From assembly GCA_045600145.1 (NCBI GenBank), contig JAZRXI010000093.1, positions 1-55,224 of the forward strand: a stretch of DNA of 55,224 nucleotides, written 5' to 3'. The DNA is from Clostridia bacterium (GTDB lineage Bacteria; Bacillota; Clostridia; Christensenellales; QALW01). A program made the position numbers and the translations under genes. Under the pieces are notes generated by a model, which saw only the letters and a program-made list of their open reading frames with translations, was not told where the DNA came from and ran no database searches. Below, piece after piece: positions 13,791 to 29,691 of this stretch. Numbering within the stretch: position 1 is the stretch's first letter; every line of letters starts with the position of its first letter.

Positions 13791-14130
13791 CTCAATTTGA
13801 AACAAACACCGAAACTTGTTTTTTGCCGTATGAAATCGACTTGTTTTACATATATGATATCACATTATCGGAAGAATATCAACAAGTGTATGATAAAACC
13901 ATAAATAAAAATATTCTTTTTTCTTTCTTCAGGAAAGTTTGCATGATGGAGCAAGGGCAAATCCCCCTGCGTTTTTTGGTCAAAGAGAAGATAGCGCTTA
14001 AAAAAGCTTGTCGACGAAAAGAATATCATTACATTTGACAACAATATATGTTATATGGTATTATATGAGTAGTTTGGGTTATCCTGCTGATATTCATTAG
14101 ACTATTTATATTGATATTTGTGGAGTATAT

Positions 14131-15829: not shown

Positions 15830-18274
15830 ATGAAAAAGTTGCTTGCTGTGATTCTCAGCACGGCATTGCTTGCGGGTGTACTGACGGCTTTATGCGGACT
15901 TCCCGTATACGCTGACGAAAACACTTACGATGCGCAAGTTTGGAAGCCTGTTGAGATAACGCTCACGAGTGCTTCGGATTATAAAAATCCGTATGCCGAT
16001 GTTGAGATAAACTCAGTATTCACACATTCCGACGGAACAACTATATCTCTTCCCGGGTTTTGGAAAGAAAACAAAACATGGGCGGTACGATTCTCACCCA
16101 CAAAGACGGGCGAATGGACATATAATATAACATGCTCCAAATCCGACGCGGGACTTACGGCATCCGGAAAGGTCAACGCTACCGAGAACACATCAAATAC
16201 CATGCTTGCCAAGCACGGCTTCGTGCGCATTTCCGACGACGCGCATTTTTATTCTTACGCCGACGGCACACCGTTCTTTTGGCTCGGCGATACCAACTGG
16301 CAGGCTCCCAACTATATTTCAACGACTACCTGCAATTATCCGGGATGTAAGTGCGGCAGTCAGTTTGAACATGAAGTAAACAACCGTGTTGAAAAGGGAT
16401 TTACGGTATATCAGACATATTTTGATTCTGCAGAATCCGACGGCGGCGGACAGCGCGGCATTCTGCCGAGCATCTGGAAGACAAAGCACAAGCTCCCTTC
16501 AGCACAGGTTTTTAACGAAAAGATCGACCATATGTTTGAATATCTGCTTGAACACGATATGACAGTCGCTCTCGGCTTCGGCGTTCACACAAGCACGATG
16601 AACAACATGAAGGATGCGGATTTCTTCCGCTTCGTGCGTTATTGCGTGGCACGTTACGCCTGCTACAGTGTCGTGTGGATATCCGGACAGGAAATAACGA
16701 ATACCGCTGATGCCGCCGCCACTCCGGGCAGAGATGTCATGGGCATCTACATGGAAGGCTCCGAGCTTATCGGCAGACTTGACGGCTATCATCATCCCAA
16801 CGGTGCGCACATGTATCCCATGATGCTTATTGACGAGCGCGCAAAACGCCTTGATGAAGCTGATTGGCATAACTGTTGGATTCTTCAGGCAGGTCACAGC
16901 AGAAAAGTGCAGAATAAAAAATTCTACGCAAGCTACTATCTCGGTGCGACAAAGACAAAGCCGTATATCGAAGGCGAAGCGAATTATGAGGATATCAACT
17001 GCGGCGGTTTCACGGGTTATGATGCAAACCGCTACTGCGCATGGAACGCGCTTATGTGCGGCTGTGCAGGTTTCACATACGGTGTTACGGGAATTTGGGC
17101 GAACTGCTATTCGACTGAAAAGAACACAGGTTGGTACGGCATAACCTCTTACAGTTATGAGCCGTGGTACATCGGTCTTGACAAGCCCGGCTCCTATGAA
17201 GTAGCCTATATGCGTCAATTTTTCGAGAGCTTTGATTGGACAAAACTCATTCCGAGATTCTACGATGCTGCCTACGCCGATTTTGCAATGGACGAAAAGA
17301 AGCTTATCTCGTCGACCGACGATGCTTCGACCATCGTATGCTATTTCTACAATAAGGATGTGGAAACGGGCAAGCTGATGCGGCTTGATTCATCAAAAAA
17401 ATACACCGCATGGTGGTTCAATGTACAGACAGGCGCGTTCACAAAGATAACCGATGTCAGTGGCTCTGCGGAGTATAGTATTCCCGATAAGCCTTCAACT
17501 GCCGATTGGGCGTTTCTGCTTACCGACAGCGATATGTCAAAGGTACGCACCGCTTCGCTTTATAAGGATCTGTATGACGAAAATCCCGACAACACCATCA
17601 CGGGCAATATCATAACGCCTAAAAAAGTCACCGCTATAGGCGGATGTGAGTATATCAACAACAAGCTCGCCGATATTACGGGGCGGCTGTACGACCTCTC
17701 GGGTGATACCGCATGGGAGCCTGTAGCTGACCGTACGACACAGACGATAATCTACGATCTCGGCGTACCGTATGATCTTACGCACATCACAATAGCGCCG
17801 CAGACAGGCACTACGCTTCCGACGTACCGCATCGAAGTTTCAAACGACGCAAAAACATGGATGATAATGGCGGATGCCTCTATCCGTGAAATGAAGTGGT
17901 CGGACGATAAAACATTCATCAGCGAAAAGCTTGCGGGCGGCTACCGCTATGTCAAGGTACTCATTCTAAACGCTGAAAATGTCGATAAGAATTCGCCGTT
18001 CAAGCTAACATATAACGATGCAACAAAAACATATTATTCGCACACCGCTATTGCCGAAATAAGCGTATTCGGCAACGGCACTGCAGAAATCACCGATGCA
18101 CCGCCAATAACCGATGTGCCATCGAATCCGGGCAGCACTGCCGATCCGAATATAAGCAGCGGTAACAGCAAAAACGGAAATACCACGCTTATCATCATGT
18201 GTGCCGCAGTTGTAGGAGTTGCCGCGGGTGTGGCGATCGGCATGATAGTTACGCGTAAAAAGAAAAAAGATTAA
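15830..18274 (+). CDS. Surface-anchored glycoside hydrolase (DUF5060 + DUF4038/GH140-like, discoidin-like domain, C-terminal TM anchor)
   Basis: Signal peptide; WAVRFSPTKTGEW, DGTPFFWLGDTNW, EGEANYE, GFTYG; C-terminal hydrophobic helix followed by RKKKKD. Confidence 0.8.
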   Translation: MKKLLAVILSTALLAGVLTALCGLPVYADENTYDAQVWKPVEITLTSASDYKNPYADVEINSVFTHSDGTTISLPGFWKENKTWAVRFSPTKTGEWTYNITCSKSDAGLTASGKVNATENTSNTMLAKHGFVRISDDAHFYSYADGTPFFWLGDTNWQAPNYISTTTCNYPGCKCGSQFEHEVNNRVEKGFTVYQTYFDSAESDGGGQRGILPSIWKTKHKLPSAQVFNEKIDHMFEYLLEHDMTVALGFGVHTSTMNNMKDADFFRFVRYCVARYACYSVVWISGQEITNTADAAATPGRDVMGIYMEGSELIGRLDGYHHPNGAHMYPMMLIDERAKRLDEADWHNCWILQAGHSRKVQNKKFYASYYLGATKTKPYIEGEANYEDINCGGFTGYDANRYCAWNALMCGCAGFTYGVTGIWANCYSTEKNTGWYGITSYSYEPWYIGLDKPGSYEVAYMRQFFESFDWTKLIPRFYDAAYADFAMDEKKLISSTDDASTIVCYFYNKDVETGKLMRLDSSKKYTAWWFNVQTGAFTKITDVSGSAEYSIPDKPSTADWAFLLTDSDMSKVRTASLYKDLYDENPDNTITGNIITPKKVTAIGGCEYINNKLADITGRLYDLSGDTAWEPVADRTTQTIIYDLGVPYDLTHITIAPQTGTTLPTYRIEVSNDAKTWMIMADASIREMKWSDDKTFISEKLAGGYRYVKVLILNAENVDKNSPFKLTYNDATKTYYSHTAIAEISVFGNGTAEITDAPPITDVPSNPGSTADPNISSGNSKNGNTTLIIMCAAVVGVAAGVAIGMIVTRKKKKD

Positions 18275-18284
18275 ACGCTTATGC

Positions 18285-18372
18285 AGGGTGACGCGACAAT
18301 CCTTATTCGCGCAAAATCAATTTTACGTCATTATGGATTGCCACGCCTACTCTGCGTAGGCTCGCAATGGCA
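18285..18372. repeat. Family B repeat, degenerate
   Basis: GACGCGACAATCC..GGATTGCCACGCCTAC..GTAGGCTCGCAATGGCA. Confidence 0.7.
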
Positions 18373-18420
18373 CAAGAGAGTTTTTATAGCAACCACTCGG
18401 ATTTCTACCACTTATTCTGG

Positions 18421-18483
18421 CAAAACGCAATAAAAGCTTTACCCACGCTTTTTCAAAAGCGGACGGATTTGAGGCGGAGCTCC
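18421..18483. repeat. Family A repeat, degenerate
   Basis: AACGCAATAAAAGCTTTACCCACGCTTTTTCAAAAGCGG. Confidence 0.7.
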
Positions 18484-18493
18484 GAAATAAGCC

Positions 18494-20440
18494 TTACTCA
18501 TCATACAGTGTTTTGAGTAAATCGCGAATTTTTGCGGCTTTTTCAAATTCAAGATCCCGCGCATACCTGAGCATCTGTTCTTCAAGCTGCGCGATCTGTG
18601 CTTTGGGATCTGTGCTTTTTACAAGCTCGACATCCTCGGACTTGCTTATTTCTATAAGCTCGGCTATTGGTTTGATTATAGTTTTAGGCGTAATATTATG
18701 CTCAAGATTATATTTATTTTGGATATCGCGTCTGCGCTTCGTCTCGTCTATCGCGCCGCGCATTGAATCCGTGATATTGTCCGCATACATTATAACTCTG
18801 CCCTCGGCGTTACGCGCACCGCGTCCGATTGTCTGGATAAGCGAACGCTGTGACCGTAAAAAGCCCTCCTTATCGGCATCGAGAATGGCTATCAGTGCGA
18901 CCTCCGGCAAATCAAGTCCCTCACGCAAAAGATTTATCCCGACGAGCACATCAAATTTGCCAAGCCGCAGATTCCGAAGTATCTTAACACGCTCAAGTGT
19001 GTGTATCTCCGAATGCATATATTCGGTTTTGATCCCGGCTTCCTTGAGGTACGCCGTGAGCATTTCCGCCATGCGTTTTGTCAGTGTTGTTACAAGCGTG
19101 CGGAAGCCTTTTGCAGTCGTCGCGGTGATTTCTTCGATGAGGTCGTCTATTTGCCCTTCAATCGGGCGCACCTCTATCAGCGGGTCGAGCAAACCCGTAG
19201 GTCTGATTATCTGCTCCGCGACTTCGCCACCCGCGCGCTCAAGCTCGTATTCTGCGGGCGTCGCCGATACGAATATCGTTTGAAGCAATCGCTTTTCCGT
19301 TTCCTCGAAGCGGAGCGGTCTGTTATCGAACGCCGCAGGCAGACGAAATCCGTATTTAACGAGCATCTCCTTGCGTGAACGATCGCCCGCGTACATCGCG
19401 CGGAGCTGAGGTACGGTAACATGTGATTCGTCAATTATCGTCAAAAAATCGCTCGGGAAATAATCCAGCAAGGTGTACGGCGGCTGTCCCGGTTTTCTGC
19501 CATCGAGATACCGTGAATAGTTTTCTATTCCGGAGCAATAGCCTATCTCCGAAATCATTTCGATATCGTAGCGTGTGCGCTGTTCAATGCGCTCGCGCTC
19601 AAGCGGTTTACTCTCGTGTTCAAAGAAATCTATCTGCTTTTCAAGGTCAATCCCGATGTTCTTTATGGCATTTCTGAGCTGTTCGGAATCTGCCGCATAG
19701 TGCGTGTTCGGGAATATCGCACAGTGGGAAAGCGTCGAAAGCACATGTCCCGTCGCGACCTCGATCTCGCAAAGACGGTCTATCTCATCGTCGAAAAACT
19801 CAACGCGCACCGCCTTATCACTGCGCTCGGCGGTAATTATCTCGACATTGTCGCCACGCACGCGGAATGTGCCTCGTGCAAAATCAATATCGTTGCGCTC
19901 ATACTGTATGTTGATAAGCTTTTTCAGCAGCTCGTCGCGTTCAAGCGTCATGCCCGGGCGGAGCGATACCGCCATTTCGCTGTATGCCTTGGGATCGCCG
20001 AGGCCGTATATGCACGAAACCGATGCGACCACTATAACATCGCGACGCTCCTGCAACGCGCATGTCGCACTGTGACGGAGCTTCTCTATCTCGTCATTTA
20101 TCGACGAATCCTTTTCAATATAGGTATCTGTCTGCGGGATATACGCCTCCGGCTGATAATAGTCATAGAACGAAACGAAATATTCCACCGCATTTTCGGG
20201 GAAAAACTCCTTGAATTCCGAATAGAGCTGTGCCGCAAGCGTCTTGTTATGAGCAAGCACGAGCGTCGGACGGTTTACCCTCTCAATGATATTTGCCATT
20301 GTAAACGTCTTGCCCGATCCTGTTACGCCCAAAAGCACCTGTGCGTCAAGCCCATCATTGATGCCCTCGACAAGCTTGTCTATTGCCTGCGGCTGATCGC
20401 CGGTAGGTTTGAATTTTGAATGAATTTCAAAATGATCCAT
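18494..20440 (-). CDS. uvrB: Excinuclease ABC subunit B
   Basis: [41 protein letters not shown]-terminal UVR domain; start ATG 20440 after GGAGGA. Confidence 0.98.
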
Positions 20441-20472
20441 GTTATCCTCCTCCATGTTCGGCATTGGCGAAA

Positions 20473-21435
20473 TTAAAAATACAGCGTCACGAACCAAATG
20501 ATCGCGGAAATGATCAACAACGGCTGAAGGTAAATAATATAGCTCGAAACTACGGCTATTTTTCCATCTATGCCGACGCTTGATATCTTTTTTCTGAGGG
20601 CGCGGCGCTTGATAATGGCTTTGACTTTTGTTTTCAAATCATCTACACCGATAATATCGGCAATAATATTCATTCCGTCAAGTCCTTCAAAGAACACAAG
20701 GTTAACCATTGCTATGACAGCATTTTGAAGTCCGGCATAATAAAGTGCGGTGCGCATTAACGGTATTTTTAATGCCAATATGAAAAACACACCTGCAAGC
20801 AGTGCGTTCGCTTCGATTCCCGCGGCATCAATCTGCGCAAGATGAAATCTCCGTTTGATCGTGCTTGTACTCATCAGCGTATATGCCCCGGGCAAAAAAT
20901 TGTTTATCATTACCCCGAACTCAAAGACCTTGCCGCCGTAAGCTATACACGCCGCCGCGTGTGACCATTCGTGCAGAAATATTCCGACAACTATTCCGAG
21001 CAGTTGACCTCCGGTGACTGCCCGGAATGAATACTCGATTTCCATTCCGCGTGCAAGGCAGAGCCCTGTAACTATGGCGGGAATAAATAACAGCATCAAC
21101 AGTAAATTGCTGAAAGAAGAAATCACACGCTTAGCCTTTGGCCATTTCGGGATAAATACAGTCCGGTAATATGAGCCGAATCCCTTCATCAGTGTCATGG
21201 AATCACGCAATAATTCGGATTCTTCGAACATGTCAAGCGCGTCGTTGATTTCGCTTCGGCTCATATGACAATCTATATCATACGGACTTGTTTTTCCGTC
21301 GAGGTTTTTCAAAAGAACGACAAGGGGCGCGTCGATAGTATATTCCTCTTCGGCAAGCCAATTCAAGACCTTATACTGATTTTTATTTATCCTTTTGTAC
21401 AGCAGAAAATTAACTGCCATGGGATATCTTGCCAT
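20473..21435 (-). CDS. M50-family intramembrane metalloprotease with a soluble N-terminal winged-helix-like domain
   Basis: HEWSH in a TM helix, [18 protein letters not shown]; start at ATG 21435 after AGGAG. Confidence 0.75.
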
Positions 21436-21457
21436 ATGCTTCATCTCCTGCAAAGTA

Positions 21458-22027
21458 TCAGGGCAGAACTGCTATTTCATCGTTGCGGATACCAAACAGC
21501 TTTCTGTCACGGCAGACCGACTTGCATGCGATAACGGTCGCAGGCGAGTATTGGTCGATATGACAAAGCACACAATCGTCTATCAAGCCTAAGCCGCTGT
21601 AATCACTTAGGCTGTAGTTATCATCTTCAAGCTGAGCGACATATCCGATATCGACCGTCGCCAACGAAGCTCCCGCGGAAACGCCGATATAGGTACTTCC
21701 GTTTTTGAGCATTCGTAATATTTCCCCCAAAAAATTGATTTCCCGTAGCTCGAACAACAGTTTGAACGGGTCACCACCCGGAACGTATATGTAATCAAAT
21801 ACGGTGTTTTTTGCCTCTGCCGCATTACCTGCATCGAGAATAAATATGTTCTCCGCAGAAAAGCCGAATGCTACAAGTCCGTCACTTTCGCGGATGCCGG
21901 TATTTATATTATTGAAGCCCGCAAACGGGATCATCAATACTTTTTTATCTTCCGGCTGCGACACATACTCTCTTATTTTTTGCGATACGATCGGACTTCT
22001 GAATCCGAATGAAGATAAAATGATCAT
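21458..22027 (-). CDS. Peptidase S51 (PepE-like, type-1 glutamine-amidotransferase fold)
   Basis: IYVPGGDPF, YIGVSAGA (nucleophile Ser), GLGL..LCH. Confidence 0.85.
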   Translation of the reverse strand: MIILSSFGFRSPIVSQKIREYVSQPEDKKVLMIPFAGFNNINTGIRESDGLVAFGFSAENIFILDAGNAAEAKNTVFDYIYVPGGDPFKLLFELREINFLGEILRMLKNGSTYIGVSAGASLATVDIGYVAQLEDDNYSLSDYSGLGLIDDCVLCHIDQYSPATVIACKSVCRDRKLFGIRNDEIAVLP

Positions 22028-22063
22028 TTTAACACCTCCGTAAATTCATTGCAGATGATACGG

Positions 22064-22471
22064 TCACATTCTTTCGAGGCTCAAACATTCCTTATTCTGG
22101 TTTGACGCGTGATCGCGTATCCACGAACATATTGCTTCATAATTATTTGTATTAAGGTATTCGGAAAGCTCATCCAGATTTTGTTCAAAATCGGAAACCT
22201 TATAGCCGTTCAAAACAAGCAACGTCAACATTGCCAGCATGGCTGTTTCTTCATTTCCCTCATTAAAAACACGGTTTGATACGATCAGGCATCCGAGCTT
22301 TGCCGATTTTTCCACAGTAGTCTTGTATTTATAGAAAAACTCATCAACTTTTTCATACGGTATTTCTGCGATATCTTTTATCTTCGCCTCGTCTTCGCTT
22401 GTGAGGCGTGCTTCATCATTGACTATCTTTTGATTAAGCATAATCAGCTGCTTCGCAGTCAGCTTATTCAT
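22064..22471 (-). CDS. Doc/Fic-family protein with a degenerate active site
   Basis: Doc-like layout (KSAKL..NRVFNEGNEETA..L.LNG) but lacks the His and Lys/Arg of HPFxDGNKR. Confidence 0.7.
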   Translation of the reverse strand: MNKLTAKQLIMLNQKIVNDEARLTSEDEAKIKDIAEIPYEKVDEFFYKYKTTVEKSAKLGCLIVSNRVFNEGNEETAMLAMLTLLVLNGYKVSDFEQNLDELSEYLNTNNYEAICSWIRDHASNQNKECLSLERM

Positions 22472-22506
22472 AAATTAAAACTCCAATCATTTGTCTAATA
22501 TGCTTT

Positions 22507-24498
22507 TTACTCATTGTTATTCAGAAATCTTTTTCTGAACAGCGCAATGTTCTGGCTGCCGACAACTTCGACATCCTTATCATGAACGGTACCCATATAA
22601 CGTGGATTATCACCTTCGCCGTATTTATCTGAAAGATATCTGATGATCCGCTTTTTGGCTTTTTTTGTAACTACGGAATCGAGCCAGCTTATCCGTGCGT
22701 GATGGATACATTCCTTTGTTACACCGTTTTCACGGTATGTATCGGATTCCACAATGACCTTATCGCCATCTTGAACGATATTGTAAATAGAGGCTTTCTG
22801 TCCGTTGATAAGCGCAGAACGTGCCGAGAAGCCGACCTCCTCGTGTATCGCAAACGCCACGTCGAGCACGGTAGCCCCCTTGGGAAGCATGATGATTTTC
22901 CCGTTTCTTAGCGTGATATTGATAGTTTCCGACACATTATCGTCGCTTTCGTCCGCCTCATTCGCATAGACTGCTGAGCCGTTACCGAATTTATATGCCA
23001 AATAATCATCGACCATGCTGAAACAACAGCGGAATCTGTTTCTGAAGCTGTCCTCAACGGTAATGATAAAACGGTTGTATTCGTCGGTCATGAAATCGGT
23101 TATTGCTCTTCCTGTTTCATTGATATGCTTCGAAAACATTTTTACAAACATCGAAGCGAATGAATCAATAGTGCCGTTTTTATCTCTTGAATCGAGAATG
23201 ATATCAAAATCACATATCGGGACGACCTTTTTATCCACCTGCTCCGCAGTGATGACATTCTGCCCGATGGCGTTTTTTATAAAATCATACACTTCGTGCG
23301 GAAGATAAAGGCGTCTCTTTACCTGAACATCGAACCCTTGTATATCAAGCATGGATTTACAGCTCCGGTTAAAATCCTCGCCGAGGTGATTGCAGAGGAT
23401 GTTTTCCATTTCTTCGATAAAATCGTTGTTTTTTTCCACCATGTCAAGGTATGATGCCTTTATCTTCTCATAACGGTTCAAATCACTTGTGCGCCAATTC
23501 AAGTCCTCGATGATCGACACAAAATAATTCAAATTGTACTTTTTGAACAGAGGAAGATATGCCGAAACAGTCTCATCTATTTTTCTGTGCTTTTTCTCGC
23601 TGTTCATTATGTCGATGGTTTGAAGGTTGTGTATTCGGTCAGCGGCTTTGATATAAAGCGCAAAAATCATAAACGGGTCGGCAGATACCGTTTGCGCAAG
23701 TTTTTTTACCGTCAGCTCATCGCGCTCCGCTTTGTCAAGCTGATGATACTCAATGCTTTGCGATTCCTCAAATTCTCTGTCTACGGAGGTAACGGCTTCA
23801 ACTAATTGTGCTACACGGACACCGCATTTTTCTTTGATCGCTTTTTTTGCCGCAGAACTGTTTTCAAGCGTATCCTCGGCTACATCGTGCAGTAATGCCG
23901 CCGCGACGATCGCACTTTCAACGCCCTCGTTGGCAAGGATCCTTGCGACGCAGATCGGATGTACAAGATACGGCTCGCCCGACTGCCTTTTCGGCGAATC
24001 ATAATGCGCTTCGCGTGCCAAACCGTATGCCTTGGAAATAGATACCGAATCCGGAATGCCGTTTTTGTTCATAATGCGCATCATGGATTCGTACATCTTA
24101 TCGCAAACTCTCATCGCTATATAGTATTCTATACTTTCGCCATCCGATACGTTTGGCTTTCGCGGAGCTTTTCGCACTGCCTCCGCCGTCCATTCAAAGT
24201 AATGCTTTGCACGGTTTTCACGGAATACGGTTTCAAAAACGGTAAGACTTGCTTTGCCGCACATGTAATCCTTATATAACAGCATGGCAATGATGTCATC
24301 TACCTCGGGTTCCATTTTTCCGCACATCAAAGCCGCTTCCTTTATTCGGTGAATAAACGCTTCATCGGACTTTCCGTTATCCCACGCAAGGTCAAGTGCC
24401 GATATTACGTCATCCGTTCCGGATTTGGACATTTTGCCGACGGTGTCGATTATTTCGCGGACGCTGTCGATTTCCTTTAATTCGGGATAAAGCTTCAT
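22507..24498 (-). CDS. RelA/SpoT homolog: pseudo-HD + HD hydrolase + degenerate synthetase + TGS
   Basis: RQSGEPYLVHP, AALLHDVAEDT, IKAADRIHN; TGS LPKGATVLDVAFAIHEEVG..ALING; synthetase motifs absent; no ACT domain. Confidence 0.85.
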   Translation of the reverse strand: MKLYPELKEIDSVREIIDTVGKMSKSGTDDVISALDLAWDNGKSDEAFIHRIKEAALMCGKMEPEVDDIIAMLLYKDYMCGKASLTVFETVFRENRAKHYFEWTAEAVRKAPRKPNVSDGESIEYYIAMRVCDKMYESMMRIMNKNGIPDSVSISKAYGLAREAHYDSPKRQSGEPYLVHPICVARILANEGVESAIVAAALLHDVAEDTLENSSAAKKAIKEKCGVRVAQLVEAVTSVDREFEESQSIEYHQLDKAERDELTVKKLAQTVSADPFMIFALYIKAADRIHNLQTIDIMNSEKKHRKIDETVSAYLPLFKKYNLNYFVSIIEDLNWRTSDLNRYEKIKASYLDMVEKNNDFIEEMENILCNHLGEDFNRSCKSMLDIQGFDVQVKRRLYLPHEVYDFIKNAIGQNVITAEQVDKKVVPICDFDIILDSRDKNGTIDSFASMFVKMFSKHINETGRAITDFMTDEYNRFIITVEDSFRNRFRCCFSMVDDYLAYKFGNGSAVYANEADESDDNVSETINITLRNGKIIMLPKGATVLDVAFAIHEEVGFSARSALINGQKASIYNIVQDGDKVIVESDTYRENGVTKECIHHARISWLDSVVTKKAKKRIIRYLSDKYGEGDNPRYMGTVHDKDVEVVGSQNIALFRKRFLNNNE

Positions 24499-24522
24499 AG
24501 TTCAAGCTCCTTTCGTCGCGCC

Positions 24523-25665
24523 TCACTTACTGAGACCGCCATTATATTTTTTTATCAGGGCGAATACCTTTCTGTCCTCTTCCTCACTCACCGTGCCCAC
24601 ACAGCACAAATTCTTTTTAACATAATTCCCGATGAGCTGATTGAGACGGTTGGAAACTATCGCTTCCTTGTCGTTGTCATCAAGAAAGCTTGTCGCGGCT
24701 GATGCACCGTCATAAAGCTTTTTGCATATCGCGCACAGCTCGACGGATTCATCTGTCGAAGTGATCGTCGCCGATGCCATATTAAGATGCTCTGCGATAA
24801 CATCTGGCGAGCATCCCAGCGTATATTTGGAAAGGATGATTTTTTGAGCTACCGGCATATGCTGTCGTCCGTGTGCTACGGACGCGACACTGCCGATGCC
24901 TCCGATAAAATCCGTATCGGTCTTTTTTTGAGGTGAATAAAGTACTATAAGCGCGTTATCGCCGTATTTACTGCTGCCGATATTTATGAAGGTATGGTGA
25001 TCGCTGAATTCAACATCGCCGTCATAAATACCCGAGGTATTATAATATGCCTGCCGAATAAAATCATTGCGGTCATTTATGCTGATTTCCGCCGAAAATA
25101 TTTCTTCCAGCTTTTTCTTGAGCTCAAACGCACTGTCCTTTTCCTCATCCTTAAAAAAAGCCGCTATCGCTTTTGCCGAAACATCCCCGTTTACGCCGTT
25201 TATATCATCGTAGACAGAAAGAACGCCGTATCTCAATTCGCGTGTGGCTTTATGTGCCTGCTCGTCGCCGGATTTCGTCTGATCGAAGTAATAGCAAAGA
25301 TAACAGCCGATAAAATCACTTCTCTTCAGCATTTTCTTTGTTTCTACCGTGACACCTTTCTTTTGCTGTAAAACATATTGAGGGTCAAAGCTGTCATTTA
25401 TCAAATCGTCGATATGCAGATCAAGCCCTTTTCCCTTAAAAACCTCCAGTGCGCAAATATTTGCAAGATACGCAACGGACGGAGCGCGTTCGCCTTTGAT
25501 ATAATTGCTGAGTGCGGGCTCCGACACGCTTGTTTTTCTTGCAAATTCCGCCTGGCTCCATTCGACGGCAGTGCACAGCTTCATAATATTATTTCCGATG
25601 TTCTTGGCGATCTTGTCTTTGTCCACCACATAGTCATAAAAAATATCCGTATCTCTCGTGCTCAT
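24523..25665 (-). CDS. XRE-family HTH regulator with a large uncharacterised C-terminal domain
   Basis: WSQAEFARKTSVSEPALSNYIKGERAPS; start at ATG 25665 after GGGAGG. Confidence 0.85.
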   Translation of the reverse strand: MSTRDTDIFYDYVVDKDKIAKNIGNNIMKLCTAVEWSQAEFARKTSVSEPALSNYIKGERAPSVAYLANICALEVFKGKGLDLHIDDLINDSFDPQYVLQQKKGVTVETKKMLKRSDFIGCYLCYYFDQTKSGDEQAHKATRELRYGVLSVYDDINGVNGDVSAKAIAAFFKDEEKDSAFELKKKLEEIFSAEISINDRNDFIRQAYYNTSGIYDGDVEFSDHHTFINIGSSKYGDNALIVLYSPQKKTDTDFIGGIGSVASVAHGRQHMPVAQKIILSKYTLGCSPDVIAEHLNMASATITSTDESVELCAICKKLYDGASAATSFLDDNDKEAIVSNRLNQLIGNYVKKNLCCVGTVSEEEDRKVFALIKKYNGGLSK

Positions 25666-25697
25666 ATTCCGATCCTCCCGCTTTTTGATTTGGTAGT

Positions 25698-25726
25698 ATA
25701 ATAGCACGATTATTTATGTCTGTCAA
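25698..25726 (-). promoter_or_regulatory. SigA promoter heading the XRE-RSH-Doc-peptidase operon
   Basis: TTGACA-17-TATTAT with an extended TG. Confidence 0.7.
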
Positions 25727-26082
25727 CACTTTGTGAACGATTAATTTTGCTTTTTCATAATATACTTTTTCAATGCCAAAACAGTTTCGCATTAGTAAAT
25801 GGATGCGTTCGCTTTTTGCCAAACATTTGTTAAGTTTTGTACAAAACGATGATTTTATACAAAATTCACATTCGTATCGGTTATTTACATTTGTATTGTG
25901 TGCCCAATAAAAAAACAGTGAGCTTAGCAAGCCGGAATGTACACCAAAATATCAGACTCCATTCAAAGCACAAAACCCGAGGATCGCACATAAAATGCAA
26001 GACATTCATGTGAAACCACGGGTTTCGTTCCGTTAATGAAGATATTAAATATTAAAGTTGTGTTTTTGATGCTTAAAACAGT

Positions 26083-28318
26083 TTACAGCAGATCCACCCA
26101 ATCCGCGATATTCCCCTTATGGAACACATACGGGTCAAGTCCTATGATACACGAGCCGCCATCGGAAGCGGATATGGTTTCATAGTCCTTTCCGTTGTAC
26201 GAAAAAACACTGCCGATTTTTCCGTCGTAATGACCATCTGACGAAGCCAACGTGACTGCGGCAACGATCTCCCCGAGATCCCTTACGTTCCACAGGAGCA
26301 TATACGGACAGATATAATCAAATGCGTTGTCATCCGATGATTTGGGCATATAATCTTTCATTTCACTCGGAAGTCCGAGTCCCGTGAGCTTTATATCCGA
26401 GCCCGATGATTTCAGCGCTTCGCCTGCCGCAAACATCCCTATCGTGGTCGGCGAAATTATCATATCCACTTTGTTCTCTGCAATAAAGGCATCCGCCTGC
26501 CTGCGGCTTTCGTTAGGCTCGTCATTGCCGTACTTGACATCGAGCTTCAGCTCGACCTTGTCCTTATACATATCCTTTTGAAGCTCCTGCTCCATACATT
26601 TGATCCAGAGATTCTGTATCGGTGTATCGACTGCTGCACCCAATGCTCCGAATTTGAGCGTTTTTCCCGAATAGTTTTTCAGCGCATCCTGCACTGCTCT
26701 TTCAGCGTAAAGACCGATACCTTGACAAGATCAACCGGCACGGACGAATATTTCGCGGTCGTCTCAGCGTTACCCATTATATAAACCATTCTGCCGAATT
26801 TGGTCTTTGCAAGCAAAATACCAAGAATCACCGCGACCGCAAGAAAGCATACATTGTTCCCAAAGTGACTATCATGGGCAGAATTTTCATTTTCCCCGCT
26901 AAAAATCCGTTTATAGCGCCGCAGATACATCCGATAGCAATACCGACGATCATCCATACAAAAACGGGGATTTGCGGAAAAGCAAGCAAAAGCCTCGTGA
27001 CGGTCACACCGCTCAAGCCAAGCACCGAGCCTATTGATATGTCGATACCGCCTGTCAACAGAACAAACATGATGCCCGTTGTAAGTATCGCGTATACTGC
27101 GTTGTTTGCAAGCATGGATGTGATCGATTTGAAGCTGTAAAACGACGGAGTGAAGTTGAGCAGTTTTGCAAAAACCACCTTTTGCTGATTCCCGCCCGAA
27201 AGCGACGATGGCTTTGCAGCGATATTTCTTGCCTTGAGGCTGAATTTTTCACACAGTTCCAACGTTCTGTCCATTTCCGCCTTTTGAGACAGCATACCGT
27301 GTCTTACGAAACGGTCAAGGTCGGATACGGTAACGTTTTGGTATATCGGAAGTTCTCCTATAAGTCCCTGAGTAAGACGATCTTCCGGCAGAAGCCCGAT
27401 GCTTTCTTGATGCCGAACACCGTCTGACAGACCTCTGTTCGTCCCGCGCCGACAAGTCCGGTCAGCGCAAGTATCTCTCCGCGACGCACGCCAAAGGAGA
27501 TATCCTTGAAAAAGCCCTCACAGCTTAAGTTCTCAATGTGCAATATCTCCTCGCCAATGCTCGCGGTCTTTTCGGGATAGAGTTTATCGAGTTTTCTGCC
27601 GACCATCGCCATTATCAAATCCGAATCAGATATGCCGTCAACGTTCCATGTGCCGATATATTCCGCGTCTCGCAGCACAGCGACTCTTGTAGCAAGACGG
27701 TACATATCCTCGAATCTATGCGTTATGAATATCATCGAAACTCCGTCTTCTCGCAGGCGGTTAACTATTTTGTAAAGCTCCTCGCACTCATACTGCGTCA
27801 GTGATGCCGTCGGCTCATCAAATATAAGCACATTCGCGTTTCTCGAAAGTGCTTTGGCTATCTCCACTATTTGTTGTTGCGCAACGCTCAGCGCCGACAT
27901 CGGCTTAGTCACGTCTATACCGTGTGAAAACGGCTCTATATACGATTCGGCAAGCTGTCACATTTTACGCCAATCATAAGTACCGAGCTTGGTGAGTATC
28001 TCTTTCCCCATGAATATGTTTTCGGTAACGGACAGATCAGGAAACACCGTTGCATGCTGATATATTGCGGCAATTCCCATATTTTGCGATTCGATCGTGT
28101 TTTTTGGGCGATACACGCCTTCCGTTGTATATCATCTCACCGCCGCAGGGTTGATATACTCCCGTGATGATTTTTATGAACGTGGATTTGCCCGCTCCGT
28201 TTTCGCCCATGAGTGCATGGACTTCACCGCGTTTCAGATGAAAGTTCATGCCGTTGAGTACAACCGAGCTGCCGAACGTTTTTACTATATCATGCAACTC
28301 CAAAATGTACTCGTCCAA
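26083..28318 (-). pseudogene. Eroded monosaccharide (rhamnose-type) ABC transporter operon: ATPase, permease and binding-protein fragments
   Basis: [52 protein letters not shown] fragments joined by a frameshift, an in-frame TGA (27958-27960) and several internal deletions. Confidence 0.88.
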
Positions 28319-28344
28319 CAATACTCCCCCTAACATATTGATTT

Positions 28345-29691
28345 TTACAAATTACTCTTTTGACTGTATTCCTTTTCCCATGCCTTTTTGCTTCTATTGC
28401 AGAGAAGTAATGAAAAAAGCATCACTGCGCTTTCGGATATCAGTGAAGCCCACCATATCGCGTCCGAACGGAACACGGCAAATATCAGCAAAAGCATGAG
28501 TGAATGTACGAATGCGCCGCGTCCCGCGCTTATCGTCACGGCATACGACGGCTTGTTCATCGCCGAAAAATAGCTCATTGTCGGAAGGCTGATCGCGGCC
28601 GGAATATATGAAAGTGCATACCGTTTAAGCCAAGTTTGTGCGAAAGCAAGCATTTCACCGCCGGCACCCGGCAAAAAAAGCTTTATAATGTACGGTGCAA
28701 ATGAGAATATCATTATCACAAAAAACAGAGCGGACGCAAACTCGACCGTGATTCCGTAACATAACAGCTTTTTACAGCTTGAAAAATCCCGTTGACCGCG
28801 AGCATAACCAACGAGCGGTTCCATTCCGAAGCCCGCTCCGTTCATGAAATTTATAATCAGACTGTTCACATACGCAATGACGGCAAACACAGATACACCG
28901 ATATCACCGAACAGCTTATACGATATAATATTGTATAGCCACAGTATTATCGCCACACACAGTTCAGTCAGTCCGTCCGAGGCACCTATGAGAAAAAAGC
29001 ATTTGATATTTTCTTTTTTCGGCAATATAAATGAAAAACGGAGCAGTGTTTTGTCATCCGAGTGTATCATGACGGCAAACACCACGCAGGTGAGCAACTG
29101 CGATATTCCCGTCGCCACCGCCGCGCCTGCCACGCCCAAATCGAATACGGCAATAAAAATCCAATCAAGCAGCACATTCAGTGCCTGCGACAGAATAACA
29201 GTCATCATGCACGGTATCTGCTTGCCGTCCTCTTTTATGAGATATTCAAGATCGTATTCGATAACGATGGATGGAATGAACGGTGCAAGATACAGCAGAT
29301 ATTCCGACGCGGGTGCGTAAAGTGCGCCCTTTGCTCCGAGAAAAGCACAAAGCGGTCTTATAAATATCGCAGTTATCGCCGCAAGCGCCACGCTTATCAC
29401 CGAAACGAAAAGAATGCTTTGCGAAAACAATTCTCCCGCTTCACTCTTTTTTCCCGCGCCTGCACGCTCTGCAACGGTTATCCCGGTGCCTGCGCTGAAT
29501 GTTATGGCAAGACAATAGAGAATATTCATCAGCGGAATGGCAAGATTCACGCCGGCAAGCGAACGTTCTCCTACATAGTTACCGATAAATATTCCGTCTA
29601 TCATGCTGTAGATCTGAAAAATACAAAGATTTACTATGTTCGGTATCGCAAATTTTGCATAAGCCTTTTTCAGATTTTCGCCATGTGTCAT
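28345..29691 (-). CDS. MATE-family efflux transporter
   Basis: [33 protein letters not shown]; about 12 TM segments. Confidence 0.92.

Follow-up and report, generated by a model that had tools for sequence, protein, structure and literature searches.

Bacterial starvation signalling centres on RSH enzymes, whose small variants, toxic ones and antidotes alike, have lately gained attention in phage defence. Among mobile elements, ICEBs1 carries ImmR/ImmA, a switch made of an XRE repressor and a protease. A study of RSH proteins (PMC7229694) recognises 13 long-RSH subfamilies, names a "cloSpo" hydrolase group in the supplement (with no "Ruminococcus" in the files examined), reports that each of the toxic synthetases assayed was neutralised by small alarmone hydrolases from phages, and proposes that invaders bypass alarmone-based defence with hydrolases; toxic synthetases are described elsewhere as pyrophosphorylating tRNA CCA ends. 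Here we analysed a 55,224-nucleotide (nt) stretch from a Clostridia bacterium (assembly GCA_045600145.1, contig JAZRXI010000093.1, positions 1 to 55,224; the window), in which five genes, all co-oriented on the minus strand at 20473-25665, run into uvrB as judged by open reading frame (ORF) analysis. In order of transcription they encode an XRE-like regulator (24523..25665, 380 amino acids (aa)), an RSH-like protein (22507..24498, 663 aa), a Doc-like protein (22064..22471, 135 aa), an S51 peptidase (21458..22027, 189 aa) and an M50 protease (20473..21435). A preliminary description had proposed all five as one undescribed system, possibly tied to DNA repair through uvrB. Instead, the first three genes recur as a unit, which we read, at a probability of about 0.55, as a horizontally moving operon that is carried as cargo by mobile elements and has alarmone-type pyrophosphate hydrolysis as its output.

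A metagenome scan with the XRE alignment yielded nine related loci, among which L173 duplicated L174, L172 and L179 were too short, and six were distinct and usable. The order XRE, RSH, Doc-like on one strand was found in all six distinct loci reaching far enough (tblastn), with identities to the window proteins of 38-50% for XRE, 33-53% for RSH and 33-51% for Doc-like (the 51% being that of the cut L176 copy over 39 residues). Across loci the proteins of the trio were about 31-53% identical, while order, strand and short spacers were kept, and by all-against-all BLAST these three were the sole proteins common to every locus and the window. Moreover, eight further contigs (22505, 40237, 55989, 15805, 27572, 22256, 38309 and 32607 nt) apparently carry both RSH- and XRE-family proteins, because identical contig sizes occur in the two match lists. 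On the other hand, a relative of the S51 peptidase occurred solely in L173/L174, ~7 kb beyond the Doc-like gene, a relative of the M50 protease solely in L178, upstream and on the opposite strand (one of the six distinct loci in either case), and UvrB was detected in none of the nine related loci (tblastn). Thus the conserved unit is the trio: the co-occurrence suggested for the five genes held for XRE, RSH and Doc-like in six of six loci and failed for S51 and M50, neither of which was ever adjacent. Likewise, the idea of an undescribed conserved association stands for the trio, on which no paper was found in the full-text literature (the long-RSH subfamily lists of PMC7229694 might already catalogue the RSH family), and falls for the five-gene combination.

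The RSH protein has kept its hydrolase and lost its synthetase. Pfam returned HD_4 (2.9e-23) and TGS (1e-12, residues 526-581) and no match to the RelA_SpoT synthetase (PF04607); from the N-terminus, the protein is built of a helical extension (residues 1 to ~148), the HD hydrolase, a synthetase fold without catalytic motifs, TGS and a short helical tail. When the protein was aligned with Rel of the same genome (719 aa, contig C100), both the intact hydrolase and the pseudo-enzyme synthetase of the preliminary description were borne out: the hydrolase motifs RxSGEPY, HP, HDxxED and ADRxHN were all kept, while the basic G-loop, DxxGxR and EIQIRT of the synthetase were gone and ~20 residues deleted. 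In the same alignment the protein stopped ~80 residues past TGS, the zinc-finger (CC) and ACT/RRM regions being missing. Within a 36-sequence alignment of RSH proteins, H180, E208 and D287 were invariant, and H204, D205, D209 and N291 were conserved in at least 90%. Against TIGR00691 the protein scored 166.6 bits, below the cut-off of 499.2.

In a structure search, the AlphaFold model of the RSH protein (pLDDT 86.3, pTM 0.79) was matched by full-length SpoT (7qpr, 6.4e-20), RelA and B. subtilis Rel (6yxa). The synthetase fold is retained, as the middle domain resembled small synthetases such as RelP, and the TGS region matched TGS structures with TM scores up to 0.93; Mesh1 bound to NADPH was also among the matches. 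The first ~148 residues were all-helical, and the pseudo-HD domain proposed for them found a faint echo in two weak leads, one from hhalign (probability 9%, E 0.0036) and one from the ESM Atlas (0.85 to an HD_4 cluster). Among the 120 matches listed for the RSH family, the best 94 were without the synthetase Pfam, and from the 95th onward every match had it; these 94 clusters were ~630-700 aa long with HD_4 and TGS (a few being shorter or without TGS). The one organism name attached to a cluster of the RSH and XRE families was that of a metagenome-assembled genome of Ruminococcus sp. In a quick maximum-likelihood tree for which the family was sampled at every second row, with its most distant members added (fragments below 550 aa dropped), 55 RSH-family rows and 25 Rel rows were split by one branch with an SH-aLRT of 100.

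The Doc-like protein passed the Fic model (28.2 bits, cut-off 24) and DOC_P1/TIGR01550 (39.8 bits, cut-off 38.65), both marginally. Its active-site stretch is SNRVFNEGNEETA, where Doc proteins have xxHPFxDGNKRTA; we take the Doc active-site motif to be HxFx(D/N)(A/G)NKR, and HPFxDGNKRTA was seen in lower-ranked matches. The catalytic His was missing in all six related loci as well. A profile search of 1.84 billion representatives found 64 proteins at 1e-10 or below; none of the best 48 matches had the His or NKR (K or R stood at the His position in 37 of the 48), whereas at ranks 101-150 both were present in 37 of 50. Therefore the protein belongs to a separate clade of Doc-fold proteins that lack the kinase site, and the pseudo-Fic/Doc assignment made earlier holds in the window, in the six loci and in the 48 best relatives. 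No gene of the small Phd antitoxin type adjoined the Doc-like gene: RSH lay directly upstream of it in the window and in six of six loci, and there was no small ORF between the two. One member of the clade, P0190 (194 aa), carries an FtsK gamma DNA-binding domain (7e-28) as a fusion.

The XRE protein matched HTH_3 (1.5e-7, Pfam). Its AlphaFold2 model (pLDDT 80.1) consists of an N-terminal Cro/C1 helix-turn-helix (HTH) domain, an eight-stranded up-and-down beta-barrel (residues 112-282) and a C-terminal helical domain. The HTH domain reached Z scores of 8-9.6, with the DNA-binding domains of ImmR (7t8i, Z 8.4), SinR and C-protein among its matches, and the barrel reached Z 7-9.2 to a set of designed barrels, avidins and lipocalin-like proteins. 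The family comprises 44 clusters of 242-397 aa, in which the C-terminal part is conserved without a Pfam match; the ESM Atlas matches of this part were all unnamed clusters, below 0.9.

The distribution of the trio is patchy. A full-length RSH match was found in none of 40 relatives (20 of them congeners), which yielded just Rel proteins of ~715-770 aa with 30-37% identity over the HD part, and in none of 400 other genomes of the order at 1e-40; the XRE profile found none in 399 other genomes of the class at 1e-30 (a 400th was not scored). As the searched genomes are samples, the module is rare rather than absent. A scan of genome contigs with the RSH alignment gave 80 housekeeping Rel loci and no new family member, because the chosen HD motifs are common to every Rel. 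The genome itself also holds an apparent small alarmone hydrolase, a 198-aa ORF with RSH-type HD similarity (G000:C77:71666-71917), and similar ORFs occur in G001, G008 and G024.

The window is chromosomal (it carries rpoB, rpoC, a PolC-like polymerase gene and uvrB), and comparison with the closest congener, G008 (L180), delimited the segment that holds the five genes. In G008, a MatE gene with 78% identity to window 28345-29691 reaches as far as 13944, and uvrB (94% identical) begins after a gap of 161 nt, at 14106; nucleotide similarity between the window and G008 ends at 20426 and returns at 28409. Thus the window has an extra segment of ~7.9 kb (20441..28344), which is missing between MatE and uvrB in G008 and which consists of the five genes together with the remains of a sugar-type ABC transporter. 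The transporter survives as minus-strand fragments within 26083..28336: ATPase pieces at 28037-28336 and 27358-27912, a permease piece at 26828-27295 and, at 26083-26694, a binding-protein piece from the C-terminus. The upstream neighbours of uvrB differed in all four congeners examined, the others having LysR, DUF554 and a uvrB 5' fragment (G001), rhamnosidase and GH92 glycosidase genes (G006), or pyruvate formate-lyase and its activase (G003). The G001 fragment (98 aa, L181:4174-4470) lies 2.2 kb upstream of G001 uvrB and is 93% identical to the window UvrB over residues 2-92, while the full G001 gene is 84% identical; the fragment being closer to the window UvrB than its own gene is suggests past recombination at the junction.

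Around the other copies, the neighbouring genes varied. An AAA+ ATPase with a Lon lid (580-621 aa, 43% identical between loci) directly followed the Doc-like gene in L171 (4139-6004) and L174 (14027-15769); the module may thus have a fourth, optional component. Type IV coupling proteins (T4SS-DNA_transf, TraG-D_C) were encoded in L175 (4e-44) and L177 (1.1e-23); L175 also had genes for ClpP, a dGTPase-like HD protein and an ADP-ribosylglycohydrolase, L174 had ParB and SpoVG, and Metallophos genes were present in L174 and L177. Genes for an Amidoligase_2 protein, a GGACT/AIG2 cyclotransferase and a small Sel1-like protein stood divergently upstream of XRE in L174 (7081-9640) and L178 (619-3433), and this cassette ran on into the M50 relative in L178 and into an ABC exporter in L174. 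Iyer and colleagues (2009) reportedly described amidoligase and GGACT genes from mobile elements. In Clostridium clostridioforme, such genes are reported from prophage-remnant regions (PMC11318856). L176 adjoins lspA, rluD-like and HAD genes, a setting as expected of an integrated element. For 22 unnamed neighbour ORFs, PHROGs had no family. Taken as gene content, these surroundings point to integrated mobile elements as the seat of the other copies, and fall short of proof.

In the window, the transcriptional layout conformed to the preliminary description, which had put five co-oriented genes with short gaps behind one strong promoter. The XRE gene (ORF 24523-25707) likely starts at the ATG at 25665 behind GGGAGG; the M50 gene (ORF 20473-21453) likely starts at 21435, reproducing the MRYP start of its homologues; and uvrB starts at the minus-strand ATG at 20440 behind GGAGGAGG. 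From XRE to uvrB the spacers measured, in order, 24, 35, 36, 4-22 and 32 nt. A sigma-70-type promoter (TTGACA-17-TATTAT with an extended -10 TG; 25698..25726, minus strand) matched at 11 of 12 positions and was the best minus-strand match within 18000-26500. Run-on into uvrB without an evident terminator was also as claimed: the three terminator-like matches on the minus strand (20809-20785, 21334-21318 and 22235-22218) were all within coding sequence, none falling in a spacer, the 32-nt one before uvrB included.

Promoters of the form TTGAC(A/G)...TA(T/C)A(A/C)T and a GGAGG site also preceded the XRE gene in L171, L174, L175, L177 and L178, with the extended -10 TG in four of the five (L178 being without TG); in L176 no promoter was made out in the 220-nt stretch, the end of which is an ATG that precedes the estimated XRE start by 36 nt. 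Further upstream in the window, the minus-strand 10-mer ACGAATGTGA (25866..25875) is a copy of the motif ACRAATGTKA, which occurred seven times in 134.6 kb (the window and nine loci, both strands). Five of the seven copies (window, L171, L175, L176 and L177) shared the strand of the XRE gene and preceded its ATG by 93-210 nt, an enrichment that is overstated because the motif was itself defined post hoc on the sequences in which it was counted, and L174 and L178 had no copy. From its placement the motif is a candidate operator or other cis element. A 98-aa ORF (25634-25930, minus strand) overlaps the XRE promoter region and is probably no gene, the open frame being its sole support.

The tie to uvrB and DNA repair did not survive. 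UvrB accompanied the trio in none of the nine loci and its neighbours differed in each of the four congeners. Moreover, no SOS box of the Cheo type, whose consensus we take to be GAAC-N4-GTTC, was found before uvrB: the window had 13 matches at up to one mismatch against 21.6 expected, and none near 20440-20800. The genes came to adjoin uvrB through an accident of insertion, and read-through into uvrB is a by-product of the landing site.

Both proteases had intact-looking motifs, as proposed at the outset, for the Ser and His of S51 and for HExxH and DG of M50. The S51 protein, of the PepE/Lmo0363-like kind, matched Peptidase_S51 (5.2e-17; 62.6 bits, cut-off 23.9), and its alignment with Lmo0363 (3l4e) paired GVSAGA with GESAGA (Ser) and LCH with LPH (His), two of the triad motifs being compared. 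The M50 protein, a putative membrane metalloprotease of the site-2 type, matched Peptidase_M50 (28.6 bits, cut-off 27.2), and H150, E151 and H154 (HExxH) and D248 and G249 (DG) were invariant in 12 of 12 sequences. Its family counts 15 clusters with a conserved ~75-aa N-terminal domain; residues 1-75, a predicted cytoplasmic domain, carry a conserved LDGKxNPYxI motif and may resemble PqqD-type peptide-recognition elements. The best two NCBIfam rows were peptide-maturing HExxH proteases far under their cut-offs (daptide HExxH protease, 69.3 bits against 300), so that a role in the maturation of ribosomally synthesized and post-translationally modified peptides, or of peptides in general, is a lead only.

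In the explanation we prefer, that of a mobile three-gene operon, the RSH protein would remove the 3'-pyrophosphate from an alarmone-type substrate, the candidates being (pp)pGpp, (pp)pApp and the tRNA 3' end presented by TGS. XRE would set the expression of the operon, possibly on a ligand held in its barrel, and the dead Doc-like protein would act as a non-catalytic partner or adaptor; we infer both the substrate and the contacts among the three proteins. The module would thereby serve its mobile element by lowering or erasing alarmone signals in the host that is entered or inhabited, and S51 and M50 would be neighbours out of the variable stock of peptide-modifying genes that such elements carry.

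Several observations weigh against this explanation: i) the function of the trio is read from sequences and models, the comparative DNA comes from six distinct related loci, and two of these (L176 and L177) are close kin; ii) coupling-protein genes were present in two of the six loci alone and ParB in one, and no integrase or relaxase was recognised near the related copies, within loci that do not cover the full contigs behind them; iii) no direct or inverted repeats flank the extra segment in the window; iv) the XRE family was not found in viral contigs, plasmids or phages, and in the same three collections the RSH search met ordinary Rel/SpoT and small hydrolases alone (23-27% identity in plasmid and phage records, while viral contigs reached 49% across short pieces of HD); v) the Z scores of the modelled XRE barrel lie where unrelated models also score; vi) the HD domain may have another substrate, since its relatives include enzymes with further nucleotide substrates, Mesh1 being one (it is reported to hydrolyse NADPH, PMC9765508); and vii) no cognate toxin is in view, PF04607 occurring once in the assembly (96.9% complete), in the housekeeping Rel on another contig, and the nine related loci giving no synthetase-like match (tblastn, best E >8, a search that very divergent synthetases would escape). 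As no synthetase besides Rel was found in the genome and none in the related loci, the trio is no antitoxin to a neighbouring toxin. The antidote role put forward in the preliminary description is kept as a hypothesis.

In a bolder form of the explanation, which we regard as a long shot, conjugative elements in gut Clostridia would use the trio for counter-defence or immunity. It would undo the action of toxic synthetases of the CapRel/FaRel2 kind in a new host; the dead Doc would sit at the translation machinery as decoy or adaptor, and the barrel XRE would be the sensor that switches the operon. If true, no tRNA repair enzyme derived from a long RSH would have preceded the RSH protein, and the trio would be the first alarmone-erasing anti-defence module of conjugative elements. 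A paper on the anti-defence genes of plasmid leading regions does not use the word alarmone.

Among the alternatives, a defence or toxin-antitoxin-like role would make XRE a repressor or antitoxin and RSH plus Doc-like a latent growth-arrest effector, which on sensing an invader degrades an essential nucleotide or blocks translation. Such a role would fit the sporadic distribution, which looks like horizontal transfer, the nearby conflict-type genes (ADP-ribosylglycohydrolase, dGTPase-like HD, AAA+/Lon lid and Metallophos), the HTH gene that leads the operon as in many such modules, and the match of the Doc-like protein to phrog_577, "Doc-like toxin" (2.4e-14). However, the Doc motif is dead throughout the six loci and the best 48 relatives, and so is the synthetase, the toxic half of known RSH toxins. 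PADLOC-DB 2.0 had no family for RSH or M50 and gave weak matches for the other two, one to the HTH only of XRE (PDC-M69A, 2.3e-6) and one for Doc-like (PDC-S23, 4.2e-4). The activity that remains is the one known from antitoxins (PMC7229694), and we consider a defence role unlikely.

Equally doubtful to us is a domesticated second SpoT-like hydrolase that tunes the stringent response of its host, sensing tRNA through TGS and having no part in a mobile element. The long-RSH architecture with HD and TGS agrees with such a role, as do the housekeeping genes amid which the trio lies in the window and the presence of Rel as the sole synthetase of the genome, which makes (p)ppGpp from Rel an obvious resident substrate. 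A domesticated gene is, however, hard to reconcile with its absence from 40 relatives (20 congeners) and from the same site in the closest congener, with the loss of the domains that dock long RSHs on the ribosome, and with other copies beside coupling-protein and ParB genes.

The signalling or immunity cassette originally envisaged, with nucleotides and proteolysis joined in all five genes and tied to uvrB and DNA damage, was largely refuted by the neighbourhood data and now seems improbable. The single promoter, the short spacers and the lack of a terminator before uvrB would suit it, and relatives of M50 and S51 do lie somewhere near the trio in two other loci; in addition, one M50 cluster and one RSH cluster come from contigs of the same size (5532 nt), which is apparently one contig with proteins of both families. 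Yet these S51 and M50 relatives differ in place and strand and turn up in one locus each, and uvrB has neither a constant neighbour nor an SOS box. Lastly, a chance assembly of neighbours without functional link, for which the synteny break with decayed genes upstream of uvrB in this genus might speak, is contradicted for the trio by order and strand kept at 31-53% protein identity and by a small XRE family (44 clusters) that shares contigs with the RSH family, and we give it hardly any credence.

For the mobile three-gene operon, then, the interest lies in what its parts could make testable: what TGS does without the ribosome-docking domains, whether conjugative elements, and not phages alone, hydrolyse alarmones, and what purpose a dead Fic/Doc protein serves. 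Here a full-length Rel-type protein has been cut to hydrolase and TGS, has acquired a new domain at its N-terminus and is firmly joined to a pair of partner genes, of which one encodes a Doc protein unable to be a kinase. The locus also teaches that an operon that looks orderly in a single genome may be composite: of the five genes three belong together, and the repair gene is a bystander.

Compared with long RSHs (Rel/SpoT), the window RSH has the same order of HD, synthetase fold and TGS with all hydrolase motifs conserved, but differs in its ~148-residue helical N-terminal extension, in synthetase motifs that are deleted or replaced, in ending soon after TGS (no zinc-finger/ACT) and in forming a separate clade; moreover, the long RSH gene is universal, whereas the window RSH is accessory. 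With Phd/Doc, the Doc kinase system of phage P1, the Doc-like protein shares fold and length (TIGR01550 was passed marginally), whereas in the members seen the catalytic His and NKR are replaced and the upstream gene is RSH rather than a Phd-type antitoxin. Like ImmR/ImmA, the trio has an HTH_3 regulator at the head of an operon that would be element-borne, and the ImmR DNA-binding domain is among the structural matches of XRE; a switch of that type was rejected, as the protease in the window is M50 rather than ImmA-type and is no conserved partner, and the window XRE adds a barrel and a helical domain.

To our knowledge, the SpoT-like cargo genes of Rickettsiales have no XRE or Doc partners. 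They belong to the Rickettsiales amplified genetic element, an integrative conjugative element, and may offer a similar case of RSH-family hydrolase genes as conjugative cargo, but in a different phylum and as short, often degraded, single-domain genes (PMC10732058; RickSpo, PMC3153485). Small alarmone hydrolases of phages and toxSAS systems (PMC7229694 and 10.1101/2021.04.30.441581) share with the window RSH an HD hydrolase without synthetase activity and, probably, carriage on mobile DNA, and would have the same job as proposed for the trio, the erasure of toxic alarmones or of tRNA pyrophosphorylation. They are, however, single-domain proteins of ~180-200 aa, whereas the window RSH has 663 aa with four further regions, including TGS and the dead synthetase, and in place of a toxSAS neighbour, of which none was found, it has conserved XRE and Doc-like partners. 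Judged by its sequence relationships, the trio is thus a rare and apparently undescribed RSH-based accessory module.

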